From Flaccisagitta enflata (lineage: Eukaryota), in NCBI GenBank assembly GCA_965153355.1, contig OZ231126.1, forward strand, positions 16,988,001 through 17,052,000: a stretch of DNA of 64,000 bases. The letters run 5' to 3'. The notes beneath the pieces are model-generated. The model ran no database searches. It was not told where the DNA came from and saw nothing but the letters and a program-made list of their open reading frames with translations. This document shows positions 1-57,737 of this stretch, piece by piece. Every line of letters begins with the position of its first letter. Within the stretch, counting starts at the first letter, position 1. Position numbers and translations under genes: made by a program.

Positions 1-12
1 GAACAGCAACTA

Positions 13-1754
13 ATGGACAGTCATCAAAGTAGTGCCAACTCATTCACTGCTTTAATCCAGCCTCCTTTAGATCTAAATAACCTAATGTATCTGAGAGCAC
101 ACGACACTGACTTGAAACTGGAAAACCTCAACATAGACTCTGTACCTTTAATTTTCCAAAAAAACAACTCCGAAATAATCAAAACTAAACTTGTAATCGA
201 CTCTAGTCTCTGCAGAGATAATTTTATAGTGGATAAAGATGAGTTACACGAGGAAAACCAAAAACAATTGGAAGTTGCTTTAGATGATTTTCATACACTG
301 CAGCCATCTAAGGCTTTAAACTTTCTCAATGAAATTCTTGAAAACTCATCTAACTTGTTTATCATAAAACGCTATTTAGAGGTCGTTGCAGACGACAACA
401 GCATATTTCAAAACCAAATTTTTGAAGGATTGTCTGCTGACAAGTCAATAGATGAGGATATCACAACTCATGATCTAAATATGATTTTCCGGTATACGGA
501 AATAGCTCTTTTTGCGAGAATCGAAATTTCAAAACATCTTAATATGCTCACCCACCCACCCGTCCCTCCAAGCAAAAGCCCCACAAGGAAATTAACAGAT
601 CTTTTAGACCTTCGAATTCCATACCGCTTTGATAACGGTCTCGACCGCACCCGCGAAGAGCGTATTCTTTTCGCATCGAAGGTTTTGAATTCTCCACAAA
701 AACGTACTCATTACAATGACACGCTTGGAATAAGAACGAGCCCTAGTATCAAACTTATCGATCTTACAAATTATTATGATATAAACTTCAAAAGGTTAAC
801 TGATAAACAAAAAGAAAAAAAGTCTGATGAGATAAAATCAGCACTACACGCGTGGCTCTCCGTAGCTGGCAAACTAGGAAAACAAGCAAACGGTCAGTTA
901 ACCGCAGATAACAGACAATATTTGGAAACCTGGCAAAACAGCAATTTGACTATCATAAAAATGGGTAGAAAACTCCTGGAACTTACTTTTAACGCTAAAG
1001 AAAGACAAATGAGACCCAACTCTAAAATATTCAATCGACCTTTTTTGGCATTGAGTCTTGACCGAAGTCATCTTAAATGTCAATTTCATATCAATAGAGA
1101 TAAACTTGTTGATAAATGTAGCCTTACCGTAAAATTCCCTCCATATGCGTCTTATAAATTGGGAAGTTCATTGCAAGAAAATCAAGAAAATGAAAACAAA
1201 ATAAACAAAGTCGTAGTAGGGCCAATAACGCTCACAAAACAATCAAACATTGCAATGTATACTAACATAATAGTTTCAGACCGTCAAAAACTTTTTTCCT
1301 CAATTCGTTTTTCTCCTCAACTACTTTGCGTCAAATCTCCCATATTGGCAGAGACAGCGCGTGAAAGTGAAAGATCAATTCTCTTTAGTTCTGATAGTGA
1401 TTTTATAACATTCTTTCAAATGCCCTTAAAACTTAATAAATACGGGACAAATATCATTTCTACCACCGCGTCACATGGTAAAATCCATCAAGATTTTTTC
1501 AAAGTACATCGTAACCATAACATATTGTCGCAAATCAAAATACGGATCACCGATGAAAATAATATTGATTTTAGGTAAGCTCTCTCAACAAGACCACCCC
1601 ACGGACGGACAGACTTTCAAAATGAATTTTTTTAAAAAACTTCACAAAAAAATGTTTTTTTTTTGCCCCTGTCATTCTCTATAGATTTCCAAGAAATACG
1701 ATGGTTAATTTAGCGTTATGCTTTCGGCCAACTCCTTTATCGATTGATGAATAA
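13..1754 (+). CDS. Polinton/adintovirus-type minor capsid protein (penton, single jelly-roll) with large internal insertion; exons 13-1574 and 1685-1754; possibly 5'-truncated by the window edge
   Basis: N-terminus SANSFTALIQPPLDL..LKLENL resembles the Polinton penton start (N..S.F...LP..I.L...EV.L.EI). The intron 1575-1684 (AG|gtaagc...tctctatag|A) joins ...LSQIKIRITDENNIDFR to FPRNTMVNLALCFRP, matching the penton C-terminal pattern I.I.I.D..G..I.F......LHFR. The frame is open from position 1. Confidence 0.75.
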
Positions 1755-1821
1755 ACTGTATAAGGATGTAAGCACGGACGTACAGAACTTCACACGGTTT
1801 CGACGCCAGACAATGCGTTGA

Positions 1822-1889
<68 letters not shown>

Positions 1890-2267
1890 ATTTATCATAT
1901 CTGTCGGTCGGTCTGTTGATTTGTTAATTTGATTTGATTGACCTTGTTTACATGTATATAGAATAAAAATTGTTTTTTTATCTGTATTTAGAATGAATAC
2001 AATGAAACATTCACATTAGAGATGAATACTCAAAGCGATATTTTTGAACTAATAAGTTCAATGTTAGACACACCACATTTAGAAACACAGAAACAGCAAC
2101 AAAAACCGGAAGAAAACAAAAAGGAAGCCCAACCAAAAAAAGATTCTAAGGAAAAAAAATCAAAGCAAACTCTAAAATCAAAAGATCCAACCCGCACTGT
2201 TCAAAAAAAAGTTTTTAAGAAAAGAGTTAAAAAAAAAGAAAGAATTACTAAAGATAATTTTTTGTAG
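1747..2267 (+). CDS. Small Lys-rich basic protein (about 98 aa if spliced: exons 1747-1767 and 1992-2267; 81 aa from ATG 2022)
   Basis: ORF 2022-2267 is Lys-rich (KKVFKKRVKKKER). An ATG at 1747 overlapping the penton stop gives MNKLYKD|gtaagc. Acceptor tttag ending at 1991 continues in frame (NEYNETFTLEMNTQ...). Confidence 0.5.
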
Positions 2268-2283
2268 TTTGACATCTAAAACC

Positions 2284-3911
2284 ATGTCTGAAACACCGCC
2301 CGTGTTTCGGGCTCCTGCCAACATTGCCTCTCCAGAAGTCAAAGACACTCTACAAAACCATCAAAATGTCATCCAAGATGGAGTTTTATTCCGGAGTTTT
2401 TCTTGTATCTCTACCGTGGACCCTCAGGTTGTTAAATTAACATGGCCATCTATCATCTATCACCTGCCGCATACCTAATAAAACTTATTAATTTTTATAC
2501 TTACTAACAGGAACTGACAACCTCCTCGAGATCTTTGAATTTCTATATAAATGAAAGAGCAGCTCTTTTGAATCCTCAAAAGATGTATTTGAGTATAAGC
2601 CTTCAAATTGTCAAAAATTCAAATGAGGAAGGACTCACCTTTGAAGACGGGTGCATAGGTCCTCCATCTCCTATAAACGGTCTTTTTGACGATGTGTCCA
2701 TTTCAATCGGCGAAACTTGTTTAGGTATCCAGAACCTTATCTTTGAGACTACCATTAACAAAGTCTATGGCCTATAACCTATTACCGTTACCTATTACCT
2801 CTATTACCAGACAGACCCGATACCTACTACGGCCTGCTCAACCACATTCGTGAAATGTTGGAAGTACCTCAAGCCATAAAAAATAGCTGGCTTAACTTCT
2901 ACGAGGGTCATGACAATGAAATTGATGGTTCATTCTCCACACCAAACGATGCTGTTACAAAAAAAGGGAATACACTAGAAGCAAAAAACGCTACTGGGCG
3001 AAGAATTTTAAAAATTTTGAATAAAAAAACAAATCATTACTTTGTCCACCTTGATACACCGCTGAGACAATTTAACGTCCTTCTTCCCTCAGTAAGTTTT
3101 GAACTATCATCAAGGCCAACTCAATCAGTTTATTAAACTAACCATTTTTAATAATCAATCATTTTTTTCTTTTCATTAGGGTCTAGAGATAAATTTAAGA
3201 CTGTTTGTAACAACAGCAGAGAAATATTTTACCGTTACAAATGCGGACTGCAACCCCAAATTCAAAATATTATCAGCGAAATTAATTTGTGAAAAATTAA
3301 TTCTCAAACCAAACTTATTACAGGTGTCTTTTGTTTTACCTTCCTTGAAAAGCACCCACTGCCACGCCACCTTGGAAATAAAAGATCAACATATTTTTTA
3401 CCCTCTACTAATTTTAGGCTATTGAAGCAAGATTGGCGAGATCTTTTATGCAAATCAACTATGAAGCACGCTTTGTAAAAACATTCTCGATCGAGGCTGG
3501 TCACATTGAAAAAAAGATACAGATAAATTCGAGGGATCCCTGTAGCTTTTTGATTATCTTTTTACAAAATAATATTTGCCATACCGGGTCCTTCAAAGAA
3601 AACTATTGGACTTTCAAACAAGAAAATCTCAAACACGCGTACATTTCATGTTCAGCAGGCGATCTAAGAATTCCAAGCTTGCCCATAGATGACATAGGTT
3701 AGTTTTTAATCTATACATATATAGAACTATAAAAAAAACCTTACTTGACTTGATACTTACTCTCTCTCTCTCTCTCTCTCACAGGTGGAGAATCAGCAGG
3801 TAGAAACAAACAAATTGCACGATCGATGCTGGTCCTTAAGAAATCAGCCAAACGAACGAACCCACGGAATGTGTGCAGTAGTTGTACGGACGAAACAGAC
3901 CCTATTTTTGG

Positions 3912-3968
<57 letters not shown>

Positions 3969-4428
3969 TAGGTTATGACTTTTCAACAGATTCAAAAGCA
4001 AAATCAAGCTTTTGGTACATATTACAACAACTTGGCCGCCTCTCAGGCGACAAAGGATCCAAAGACTTTGACTTTGAATCTTGGAAATCTCATCGGTTCA
4101 TATTACCCTTTAATTTAAGTGCTGAGGAGAGCCTCCCTAGCCCTGCAAAAAGAAGAAGAATAACATTAAAACCCATTGCAGTCGCCAACGACTACTCTCT
4201 CTATCTGAGATTTAAAGCGCCTACGACTAAAGTATGGAAATCAAACATCCCTGGCCTAGATACAAGCAAAGTATTCGAATATCAAATGTCAAATATCAAA
4301 TATCAAATATCGAATATCAAATATCATTTTTATAGGTTCTGCGCCTTGTTGTAGTATACTTTCAAAATCGCTCAATTGCTATTGAAAGTAATCGTACTAC
4401 TTGGAGAAGTTTCGAAACGGATCAATGA
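2284..4428 (+). CDS. Polinton/adintovirus-type major capsid protein (double jelly-roll), about 476 aa; exons 2284-2427, 2511-2724, 2811-3091, 3180-3323, 3418-3697, 3785-3799 (putative microexon), 3972-4231, 4336-4428
   Basis: All introns are GT-AG and phase-compatible, giving one stop-free frame. Colinear motifs resemble Polinton MCP: LNFYI..LLNPQKMYLSISLQI, PINGLFDDVSISIG, LDTPLRQFNVLLPSGLEINLRL, FKILSAKLICEKL, INYEARFVKTFSIEAG, GSFKENYWTF, IPSLP..YDF, FILPFNLS, LYLRF..VLRLVVVYFQNRSIAIESNR. Confidence 0.85.
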
Positions 4429-4487
4429 GGATGACCTTTATAGATGACCTTTATAGATGACCTTTATAAAAAATATAACTGAAAATC

Positions 4488-5060
4488 ATGGCATTCACTT
4501 CCAAACAGCTCATTACTAGCAACAATGATTTAATAAAATATTTAAAAAAGACACCAAAAGCATACCAACTCATTAACAAAGGGAAATTCATAATCAACTA
4601 CGACAAACTTCAACATATCTCACCTGAGAGGTTTTCTGGAAAAAAAATGGCCATTATCTTAAATTCCTTACATAGCAATAATGTTGAAAATGTTGACAAT
4701 GTTGGTTGCACTGGTAGTGTAGGACATTGGATTTTACTACTTTTCAACATAAGAAAAAAAGAATGTCTTCTTATTGAAAATTTAGCTTATGTATATAAAA
4801 ATTGTATGAACATAAAACAAGCTATAGATACATTTTGTACATCACATAATTTTTCTTTAATAGATTATAATTTAAAAAGCCAAGGAAATAAGGCTAAATC
4901 TTGCGGGTTCCAAGTCATTTTTTATCTTACCTTTTTCGCTTACAATGATATTCCCAAACTTAAATTGTTAAAACAACGCTTGAAAACTTATTCTTTGGTA
5001 GAACGAGAAAAATATATTCTTCGCCGTGCCCACGATCTATGTAAATATGGAATTTCCTAA
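4488..5060 (+). CDS. Adenain-like (clan CE, C5-type) cysteine protease, virion maturation protease
   Basis: Intact 190-aa intronless ORF. It has IILN...GHWILL (catalytic His), LLIENL (acidic triad residue) and SQ....SCG (oxyanion Gln and catalytic Cys), in the order seen in adenovirus and Polinton proteases. Confidence 0.88.
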   Translation: MAFTSKQLITSNNDLIKYLKKTPKAYQLINKGKFIINYDKLQHISPERFSGKKMAIILNSLHSNNVENVDNVGCTGSVGHWILLLFNIRKKECLLIENLAYVYKNCMNIKQAIDTFCTSHNFSLIDYNLKSQGNKAKSCGFQVIFYLTFFAYNDIPKLKLLKQRLKTYSLVEREKYILRRAHDLCKYGIS

Positions 5061-5153
5061 CGCTACTAGTGTCAACTAAATATCATTGATTTTCTTCGAT
5101 TACTCGCATATCTCTAGCTTTGATTTGGCATATTGCTTAGCTTACGTTTCAGA

Positions 5154-5666
5154 ATGGATTCTGTTTCAAACGAAAACACATCTGTTGATACTACAACAAA
5201 CACTGAAACTGTACTACACAAACCACCGCGGTTCTTTTTTGTACGTAATGAAGTACCCGACCGATCCCTAATTCCAAACCGCGCCCGTGAAATCCCAAAT
5301 CTGGGCCCTGACCAACCACAGCCAGCCATCCCAATCAACGAAGGACACCAGGATCAGGAGCAATACGAAAATCAAGTTTTAAATCATCCACGTCCCAGGA
5401 AAATCGGCTTCTTGTTTGCTTTACTGGTTCTAGTTTTCCTGGCTTCCTCTTTCGCAAGTGACGTCGCCTCAACTAAATACATCTTTGACCTTGGGGACGC
5501 CACATTGAAAGAAAAAAAGAATCCGGCTAATACACAGGCCCTGTTGTCTTCTGCTTCATGCTATTTGAACAACGAAACAAAAATCATCACCATCATTTGC
5601 AACAAAGGCTCACGTCAATACTCGTTAAAAGATCTGAATCTTCTTACCTGCAGATACGAATACTGA
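5154..5666 (+). CDS. Hypothetical single-pass membrane protein (170 aa)
   Basis: ORF from ATG 5154. Disordered Pro/Asn/Gln-rich N-terminus, basic RPRK followed by hydrophobic IGFLFALLVLVFLASSFA, and a C-terminal region with three Cys. Lies inside the viral cluster. Confidence 0.6.
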   Translation: MDSVSNENTSVDTTTNTETVLHKPPRFFFVRNEVPDRSLIPNRAREIPNLGPDQPQPAIPINEGHQDQEQYENQVLNHPRPRKIGFLFALLVLVFLASSFASDVASTKYIFDLGDATLKEKKNPANTQALLSSASCYLNNETKIITIICNKGSRQYSLKDLNLLTCRYEY

Positions 5667-5672
5667 CATTAA

Positions 5673-6104
5673 ATGAATAGCGAATCACTTCAACTAAGAG
5701 CGTTACAAAGGTGAATATAAAGCACATCTTTGTATCTTTTTAGGCGCGACAAAGCACCTCTAACTGGTTGTGTCCGTCGGTCGGTTGGTCAGTCGGTCAG
5801 GTAACGCATTTGTTCGACGATCCATGTGTCGCACCTTATTGACCCACTTGGCCTTATTTCGTTTTCCTTCCCCTTACATAAACAAAAGCATATAATATTC
5901 ATTCATTCTCACACCTTCAGGGAGCTCATACATTCTAGAAAAAAAGCCGGGGAAAAAGGAAACATGTCACGCCGTCGACGAAGGCGGAGGAGGAGGAGAC
6001 GAAAGGGGAAACGTTATAGAAGAAGACAAGCAAAGGGAGCTGGTGTTTTACGTGGAGTAAAAAGGAAGATAGTGAAGAAACGGCGACGTCGTCGAACCAA
6101 ATAA
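5673..6104 (+). CDS. Arg-rich protamine-like putative virion core protein (73 aa; exons 5673-5710 and 5921-6104; 46 aa if started at ATG 5964)
   Basis: MSRRRRRRRRRRRKGKRYRRRQAKGAGVLRGVKRKIVKKRRRRRTK uses mixed Arg codons (cgc, cgt, cga, agg, cgg, aga), so it is not a microsatellite. Upstream exon MNSESLQLRALQ(R) splices in frame via AAG|gtgaat...ccttcag|G. Confidence 0.65.
5737..5862 (+). mobile_element. Short HINE/DINE-1-like host repeat inside the intron of the Arg-rich gene
   Basis: ttttaggcgcgacaaagcacctctaactgg..(gtcg/gttg)n..ggcctt is closely similar to copies at about 11441-11570 and 11777-11895. Confidence 0.7.
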
Positions 6105-6578
6105 TTCGCAGCTAAAATAATTACTGAGCAACATCTATAACTAGCTTATTTTATAACAATGTACATAACACGCGTTACAATGCTGTAAAAAATTGATACA
6201 ATTGCACTTTGATGAAAAGCTTTTAAAATAAAATATTTGAGTGCTTCATGCTAAAAACAAATCTGATTGAAATCACTATCACTGTAACACTGGCGCCATT
6301 TTTTGGCGCTCGAAGGCCTGCACATGTCCAAAATTGTAATTCTATTATCTGGTGTCAATTTTGATATTAAAACGCCGTCTTTCTATCATCTGACCTAGCT
6401 TGTTACAAATATATGTAAAAATAATGTATCACTAGCGCCTTTCCTTTATCTAATCTAGCTTGTTACAAGGATCAGAAACCCATCCAAAAAAAACATAGTT
6501 AAACCCTATATATGTAACTACTGGGGATTGGGGGTCGTGAAGAGAATCAAGGTGCTGATAAGAATGTGGAATATACTA

Positions 6579-52343: not shown

Positions 52344-57737
<5,394 letters not shown>

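Follow-up and report, generated by a model that had tools for sequence, protein, structure and literature searches.

The element and its capsid-side genes

The stretch of Flaccisagitta enflata DNA analysed here, the window, is 64,000 nucleotides long (C1:16988001-17052000, C1 being contig OZ231126.1; the genome searched amounts to 794 Mb in nine contigs). An integrated element of 47.5 kb (C1:16947063-16994522) that resembles Polintons/Mavericks has its right end in window bases 1-6522, and its capsid-side genes, in particular that of the major capsid protein (MCP), are interrupted by nine introns (Table 1). Comparison with related elements in the same genome suggests that these introns were gained in an originally intron-free viral gene and that they reflect a long-running turnover of gain and loss.

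The element ends in AGTAGT on the left and ACTACT on the right, and AGT-repeat ends are a mark of the Polinton/Maverick family. Its ends are intact and identical, and the element is recently integrated. A second copy of 49.3 kb (C2:55854521-55903816) has the same ends and a target duplication of TCTATC, and two sister copies, about 97% identical to the window element over this region, share its introns. Lengths of 47.5 and 49.3 kb are about twice the usual Polinton size; tandem repeats make up 12-32% of the upstream pieces versus only 4% of the capsid-side 6.5 kb. Upstream of the window, an integrase is indicated by an rve match at L031:7612-8406 (E=5e-4, below the curated cut-off), beside what we take, by resemblance, to be the C-terminal integrase part (L031:8410-9225). 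The exons of the polymerase, assigned to protein-primed family B, can be matched to an 873-aa PF03175 frame one motif after another, with low scores (92 and 109), a Pfam match on one exon only (E=0.05) and no match in a homolog search with these exons; calls of N-terminal polymerase introns are unreliable. Searching the element with PF04665 for a packaging ATPase gave no match, and Walker A-like and Walker B-like segments in L032 were picked out by eye. On the terminal repeats, the 6-bp duplication, the predicted double jelly-roll MCP, the polymerase and the integrase, we file the element as a divergent Polinton/Maverick.

The MCP exon profile retrieved 273 proteins, among the best 150 of which are 13 full-length records (417-456 residues), one of them carrying Capsid_N (E=0.001). 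The fold is read from the homolog P0013, whose model (pLDDT 73) matches the capsid proteins of vaccinia (D13), mavirus, Sputnik and PBCV-1 with E about 1e-5; a model from family G exons only reached a pLDDT of 43. Retained introns appear to be read through in records P0013 and P0021. No matches came from homolog searches with single exons, IMG/VR scans or a PDB sequence search. The penton-like protein has no Pfam match, and we assume its identity from gene position and C-terminal resemblance. The protease, with 46 matches in the genome, is nearly full-length in most copies.

Table 1. Features of the window, in window coordinates; slashes mark exon-intron junctions and the families are those of the MCP comparison
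Feature	Position	Strand	Remarks
Penton-like (minor capsid) gene, 3' part	1..1754	+	gene starts some 180 nt upstream of the window; a single intron close to the 3' end
Intron 1 (penton-like)	1575..1684	+	110 nt, phase 2, TAG/gtaagc; site common to families B, C, D, F
Small lysine-rich open reading frame (ORF)	2022..2267	+	between penton-like gene and MCP; no informative Pfam match
MCP gene (predicted double jelly-roll)	2284..4428	+	8 exons, including a 15-nt microexon (3785-3799)
Intron 2 (MCP)	2428..2510	+	83 nt, phase 0, CAG/gttgtt; family A only (B is without this half)
Intron 3 (MCP)	2725..2810	+	86 nt, phase 1, TAG/gtatcc; ctattacc repeat; family A only
Intron 4 (MCP)	3092..3179	+	88 nt, phase 0, TCA/gtaagt; common to families C, D, F
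Intron 5 (MCP)	3324..3417	+	94 nt, phase 0, CAG/gtgtct; common to C, F; absent from D
Intron 6 (MCP)	3698..3784	+	87 nt, phase 1, TAG/gttagt; common to B only
Intron 7 (MCP)	3800..3971	+	172 nt, phase 1, CAG/gtagaa; site in B, C, D, F and distant I and O
Intron 8 (MCP)	4232..4335	+	104 nt, phase 0, AAA/gtatgg; aaatatc repeat; common to B
Putative adenovirus-like cysteine protease gene, intron-free	4488..5060	+	His and Cys motifs; weak PF22102 match (E=0.04)
ORF with hydrophobic segment	5154..5666	+	no function assigned
Arginine-rich core-like gene	5673..6104	+	coding exons 5673-5710, 5921-6104
Intron 9 (core)	5711..5920	+	210 nt, phase 2, AAG/gtgaat; site also occupied in families C, F, E, G, H, by introns of 84-142 nt
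Right terminal inverted repeat	6396..6522	.	127 bp, 100% identical to left repeat C1:16947063-16947189; ends ACTACT
Target site duplication GGGGAT	6523..6528	+	same 6-mer before left end of element

Evidence for the introns

Genes were modelled with a custom spliced protein-to-DNA aligner whose splice scores come from intronic bases only and so do not favour exonic AG. Genome searches gave 71 MCP matches; the MCP was modelled at 42 loci, loci L076 and L090 were dropped for want of a usable MCP, and one copy per family was kept, giving 19 families. Family A is that of the window, and family B is its nearest relative, a partial one that lacks the N-terminal half of the MCP gene.

Nine introns had been proposed from the letters of the window alone (the sequence-only reading), and all nine are present, eight as proposed to within 1-2 nt and the core intron with corrected boundaries. 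The core donor is placed at 5711 because homologous upstream exons in other families fix it. A donor at 5801 (CAG/GT) was rejected, as it lies inside an inserted host repeat: intron 9 contains about 127 nt of a host dispersed repeat at about 5732-5860 and would measure about 83 nt without it. A model with a single 272-nt intron instead of the microexon and the two introns around it was also rejected, since three seeds recover the microexon.

Removal of the introns makes the MCP frame collinear with its homologs. The MCP alignment scores 1183 with introns versus 683, plus nine breaks, when introns are forbidden, and the controls score 32 (reverse-complement DNA) and 37 (shuffled DNA). The same seven MCP introns were returned by a two-intron family used as single seed, by a metagenome homolog and by a profile excluding the window's clade, while a profile of 13 outgroup records alone gave four of them exactly and two approximately and skipped the microexon. 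Across the families, leave-clade-out profiles recover 119 of 119 MCP introns, and 114 of these, if retained, would disrupt the frame or introduce a stop. Their donors are GT in 114 cases and GC in five, and donor and acceptor profiles are host-like, a likeness that is partly built in, because the aligner scores intronic donor bases. The window MCP has no break other than its introns; several other copies have stops or frameshifts. Exon pN/pS is 0.13-0.31 in eight between-family pairs and 0.40 in the ninth, the most distant. Introns shared between families are 44-66% identical, with indels, and length differences among sister copies are confined to introns; intron 6, for example, reaches 133 and 140 nt there through growth of a CT repeat. 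We take the introns to be real interruptions, gained in an intron-free viral gene and very probably spliced. The polymerase points the same way: its motifs A, B and C are each split by a GT-AG intron (L157:162-476, L156:9424-9603 and L156:8679-8765, minus strand), and a recently mobile lineage with such a gene could presumably hardly work without splicing.

Probable intron turnover across 19 families

The 19 families, with MCPs 22-88% identical, carry 119 introns at 62 positions, 34 of which are occupied in a single family, and each MCP has 2-10 introns (mean 6.3). An open, in-frame block of 195 nt in family H was removed before all intron counts, and one family-N intron boundary is probably called 6 nt off. 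In the family H MCP (L077, L078, L080, L081), about 60 residues of low-complexity sequence are inserted in an open frame and mimic an intron.

The introns of the window differ widely in how far they are shared. Introns 2 and 3 are found in family A only, and introns 6 and 8 also in the nearest family; introns 4 and 5 and the penton intron extend to families that are about 53% identical, the core intron to families of about 40% MCP identity, and the site of intron 7 occurs even in families of 27-31% MCP identity. Families C, D and F (L042, L071, L074) have an intron one nucleotide upstream of the intron 8 site, an offset that is possibly due to intron sliding. Four intron positions fall within 5 nt near profile codon 284. 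Metagenome contigs L122 and L123 carry a related MCP (31% identical to the nearest family) with four introns of 84-94 nt. The penton-like gene (1.55 kb) is intron-free in six families (L060, L063, L066, L087, L088, L089) beside MCPs with 7-10 introns, and likewise in L122/L123 beside their four-intron MCPs.

In a tree rooted with ten single-frame MCP records, to which contig L122 was added, the split from this outgroup has an SH-aLRT support of 100. The introns appear to have been gained because the outgroup capsid genes are single reading frames, so that the proposal of gain in an ancestrally intronless gene holds. Parsimony gives 80 gains, 4 losses and no stem gains at equal cost, 76 gains, 8 losses and again no stem gains when gains cost double, and 64 gains, 56 losses and 5 stem gains under Dollo; with 0-5 stem gains, an ancient shared set of positions, which the sequence-only reading had named as contrary to its proposal, is unlikely. 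Family B was scored as without the intron-5 site although its alignment starts there, which perhaps adds one false gain. A crude two-state likelihood model estimates about 260 usable sites, a loss rate of 1.4 (per intron and per substitution per site) and a balance of about 6.4 introns, versus the 6.3 found. Gains at the same sites in unrelated families are apparently parallel. The single burst of gain suggested earlier is not supported by these data, in which the window's introns have staggered ages, gains and losses are spread over the tree and more than half of the positions are private to one family. Smaller local bursts are possible. We consider it likely, with a probability of roughly 0.7, that the introns reflect long-running gain-loss turnover with a preference for proto-splice sites and room for local spurts.

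Intron features against the host baseline

The host baseline consists of 75 introns from aldehyde dehydrogenase (45) and chaperonin (30) genes, called with the same aligner; the counts exclude two weak calls at the gene ends of L117 and another two at those of L121, a pair of duplicated introns in L103, and chaperonin (CCT) introns with flanks <20 residues. Some host aldehyde dehydrogenase genes (L091, L092) are single long frames, and their paralogs hold 4-9 introns.

The count of exonic AG before the donor that first drew attention to the window's introns is correct at seven of nine (the exceptions are TCA/gt at 3092 and AAA/gt at 4232), but it is not distinctive because the host rate is equal: 54 of 75 host introns have it (p=1.0 against the window), as do 42 of the 62 viral positions (p=0.71 against the host). 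Exonic AG instead tracks weak donors. It precedes 46 of 59 weak versus 19 of 60 strong viral donors, and 23 of 24 weak versus 8 of 21 strong host donors; that it offsets weak donors is expected from U1 pairing. The three weak donors singled out earlier, gttgtt (2428), gtgtct (3324) and gtagaa (3800), are indeed there, each after CAG.

Length does set the viral introns apart, and the narrow size range noticed in the window is borne out. Seven of its nine introns measure 83-110 nt, versus 5 of 75 in the host (Fisher p=6e-6), and the same holds for 59 of the 119 viral MCP introns (p=9e-11); the median is 106 nt, the two host samples have medians of 278 and 277 nt, and the longest MCP intron has 557 nt. 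A packaging limit is a doubtful cause of this shortness because the element is 47.5 kb long and so much of its upstream part is tandem repeat.

Both internal repeats reported in the window exist, although such repeats are no commoner in viral introns (36 of 119) than in host introns (17 of 45). The 8-mer ctattacc occurs three times in intron 3, an arrangement matched in 1 of 2000 shuffles, and aaatatc has seven copies at 4278-4326, where 4275-4326 matches dozens of other places in the genome; the corresponding family B intron has a related repeat. The host dispersed repeat of intron 9, which includes a GTCC-type microsatellite, also lies, in both orientations, inside longer viral introns elsewhere (L048, L063, L089, L105, L106, L107). 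The dispersed repeat inside introns seems to us to resemble non-autonomous Helentron/DINE-1 elements.

Proto-splice sites and the source of the introns

Insertion at proto-splice sites, which had been proposed from the AG count, gains support from a different comparison, in which each intron position is examined in the nearest family without that intron. At these empty sites AG stands at 10 of 62 versus 3.4 expected (p=0.002), G/G at 12 versus 2.1, and AG-compatible residues at 33 of 62 versus 11.3 (p=6e-10), or at 18 of 34 versus 6.4 for single-family introns. At one site, AG is present in 11 of 16 intron-free families and the intron in two unrelated ones. A proto-splice preference is thus supported by the sequences, and it could lie in insertion or in survival, two biases that are indistinguishable here.

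The introner-like families that the sequence-only reading had suggested looking for did not emerge. In genome searches, which skip very common words, the window introns match only sister copies and simple repeats, and a family-B-specific intron matches only itself. Where matches between different positions among the 119 introns were inspected, they proved to be low-complexity tracts or host repeats inside the introns, in one orientation or the other, and terminal inverted repeats of introns are at chance level (score 7.36 versus 7.32 in mixed ends). Repair-type insertion at breaks is our best guess for the source of the introns, modelled on what has been proposed for Daphnia (PMC4202315).

Proposed explanation and its alternatives

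We propose that these genes are the capsid module of a mobile Polinton lineage that replicates in the nucleus and has long coexisted with the host spliceosome, and that its core genes have reached a balance of intron gain and loss. The host major spliceosome would splice the element's transcripts, and DNA-to-DNA copying passes the introns on to new insertions, as the introns shared among sister copies show. In what is the weakest step, introns would arise singly, as short unique insertions of repair type at breaks in replicating linear DNA; they would land or survive mostly where the coding sequence has AG or G before the cut, with exonic AG compensating weak donors. They would also be lost precisely and occasionally slide, and their length would at first stay near the host minimum and later change as microsatellites grow and host repeats are taken up. 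The nine introns of the window would then be a staggered sample of turnover.

Several results weigh against this explanation. No splice junctions were found in four RNA runs, one of raw reads and three metatranscriptomes; the raw-read run has almost no coverage, about 6% of it having given a single partial read. Metatranscriptome contigs of depth 2-9 cover exons, introns and spacers alike, and one spans all of intron 3324-3417 unspliced; these contigs are probably DNA carry-over, which fits the coverage of spacers. Absence of introns in the outgroup is read from protein records, some perhaps transcript-derived, and the host baseline is drawn from two old gene families. Gain versus loss at shared sites varies with the cost model, and gains are uneven over branches (p=0.04). 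Precise loss likewise leaves AG at empty sites, and in the 21 closest pairs AG occurs at 3 versus 1.2 expected, which is not significant (p=0.11). Junction repeats, the expected footprint of insertion, average 2.4 overall, 2.9 for single-family introns and 3.0 in the host. Even the closest families are almost saturated at synonymous sites, and old insertion footprints would be gone for that reason.

The narrow size range and the uneven gains (10, 8 and 5 on branches K, I and O) could also reflect one or a few bursts, for example by a once-active introner transposon whose copies have decayed past recognition. Sequence decay could conceal such old families, and introners are described, in the available text of two studies, in dinoflagellate Polinton-like proviruses (PMC11957031) and mirusvirus MCP genes (PMC12768974). 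This is nevertheless unlikely in view of the staggered ages, of window introns that match only sister copies and simple repeats, and of terminal inverted repeats that do not exceed chance. Rather less probable still is a clade ancestor that was already very intron-rich, with present differences mainly due to losses: some sites are shared by families that are only 25-40% identical (two of them by six or seven families), contig L122 has one site in common and Dollo requires its 56 losses, yet even Dollo places only 5 of 64 gains on the stem, 34 of the 62 positions belong to one family, several are separated by just 1-4 nt, so that a single gene could not have held them together, and record P0024 is unbroken for about 290 residues across the deepest shared sites. 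Least probable of all is that the blocks are unspliced decay insertions in dead proviruses. The lack of junction reads, the unspliced contigs, the stops or frameshifts of several copies and a published statement that introns found in endogenous giant viruses are taken to signal decay (PMC12768974, available text) agree with it; but each of the 119 blocks is bounded by GT/GC-AG at a collinear position, families already saturated at synonymous sites still keep positions in common, purifying selection acts on the exons, and the window has an otherwise unbroken MCP in an element with intact, identical ends.

Selection to keep introns, as a shield from HUSH-like silencing of intronless RNA or as an aid to export, is compatible with turnover, and we regard it as possible though rather doubtful. 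Intron insertion counters HUSH repression of transgenes in human cells (PMC8770142, available text), the host has a DUF3715 (TASOR-like) match (E=4e-24, C6:32172749-32173177, in a 2343-aa frame), every MCP among the 19 families has at least two introns, and punuivirus, as far as its accessible description goes, has intron-rich latent genes. On the other hand, intron-free penton-like genes (six families and L122/L123) and proteases sit beside MCPs with 4-10 introns, positions turn over freely, anything from 2 to 10 introns is tolerated, and turnover needs no benefit. Returning to long-running turnover as the preferred explanation, its broadest form, which we hold tentatively and at slightly less than even odds, is that large animal Polintons of about 48 kb may form a widespread clade that has been overlooked and has become obligately spliced, with continuous turnover of capsid-gene introns, recurrent independent gains at identical proto-splice sites, no introners and an intron-free ancestor, host surveillance perhaps imposing some of the introns.

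Other features of the element and the window

The element also encodes an inhibitor-of-apoptosis gene (L156:821-1408, minus strand; BIR E=7e-12, plus RING) and a SPRY-domain gene (L156:2-817, minus strand; E=7e-13). Between the MCP stop and the protease start, a 13-mer is present in three exact copies (4430-4468). Acceptor-like AG lies one base 5' of the ATG at 1991 (tttag/aATG) and at 5152 (ttcag/aATG); together with a donor-like gtaagc at 1768, these suggest that a long late transcript may have leader introns or be alternatively spliced. Outside the element, the window holds a host zinc-finger gene with ZFPM2/FOG-type CCHC fingers (52344-57399, minus strand; E=3e-9), of a kind that identifies the host as an animal.

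Comparison with known systems

Animal Polintons/Mavericks of the adintovirus type have, like this element, terminal inverted repeats, a 6-bp duplication, polymerase, integrase and a double jelly-roll capsid; they also have an ATPase and a protease, for which this element has candidates. In the available text, the genes of intact vertebrate Mavericks (PMC8097293) and the core genes of a nematode Maverick (bioRxiv 10.1101/2022.07.12.499685) are described as intronless, whereas here the MCP has 2-10 introns and the polymerase motifs are split. The present elements are also longer, at 47-49 kb, and their MCPs are only 20-25% identical to full-length single-frame records. The passages found in the adintovirus paper and in two Polinton surveys make no mention of spliceosomal introns, and searches of the literature outside subscription papers, Repbase reports and supplements gave no account of intron-rich core genes in animal Polintons. 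Cryptophyte elements carry group I introns, and punuivirus, in the accessible account, has introns in latent genes. The closest database matches to the present elements are mostly exon-sized fragments, and Polinton surveys that rely on long open frames would overlook this mobile lineage or call it dead.

Dinoflagellate Polinton-like proviruses likewise have introns inside Polinton-like elements (PMC11957031), but according to the text available those are copies of host introners, mostly acquired after integration, while the introns described here are unique, pass to new copies and persist in families that have diverged. In Daphnia pulex (PMC4202315), new introns share with ours the parallel gains at homologous positions and the internal direct repeats, and the accessible part of that work proposes double-strand break repair as their source. 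They differ in lying in host genes and in their population time scale; no introns young enough for such footprints were found here.

The closest published pattern is that of mirusviruses (PMC12768974), for which the available text describes short GT-AG introns enriched in virion genes, variable MCP positions and unrelated introns at the same site, and takes the introns to indicate nuclear replication. Mirusviruses are unrelated viruses with an HK97 capsid, giant genomes and protist hosts, and their introns include introners and others that encode homing endonucleases, neither of which was found here. The origin of spliceosomal introns without introners, and their targeting to proto-splice sites, is a long-standing question with few clear gains to study. 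If the interpretation proposed here is right, intron colonisation of one gene has been replayed in many parallel lineages within one genome. Unlike in mirusviruses, the host genome and many families are available together in F. enflata, and a single gene of 470 codons, with 62 positions in 19 families of one genome, an intron-free outgroup and empty sites, makes the rate of gain, parallel gain, loss and sliding measurable.

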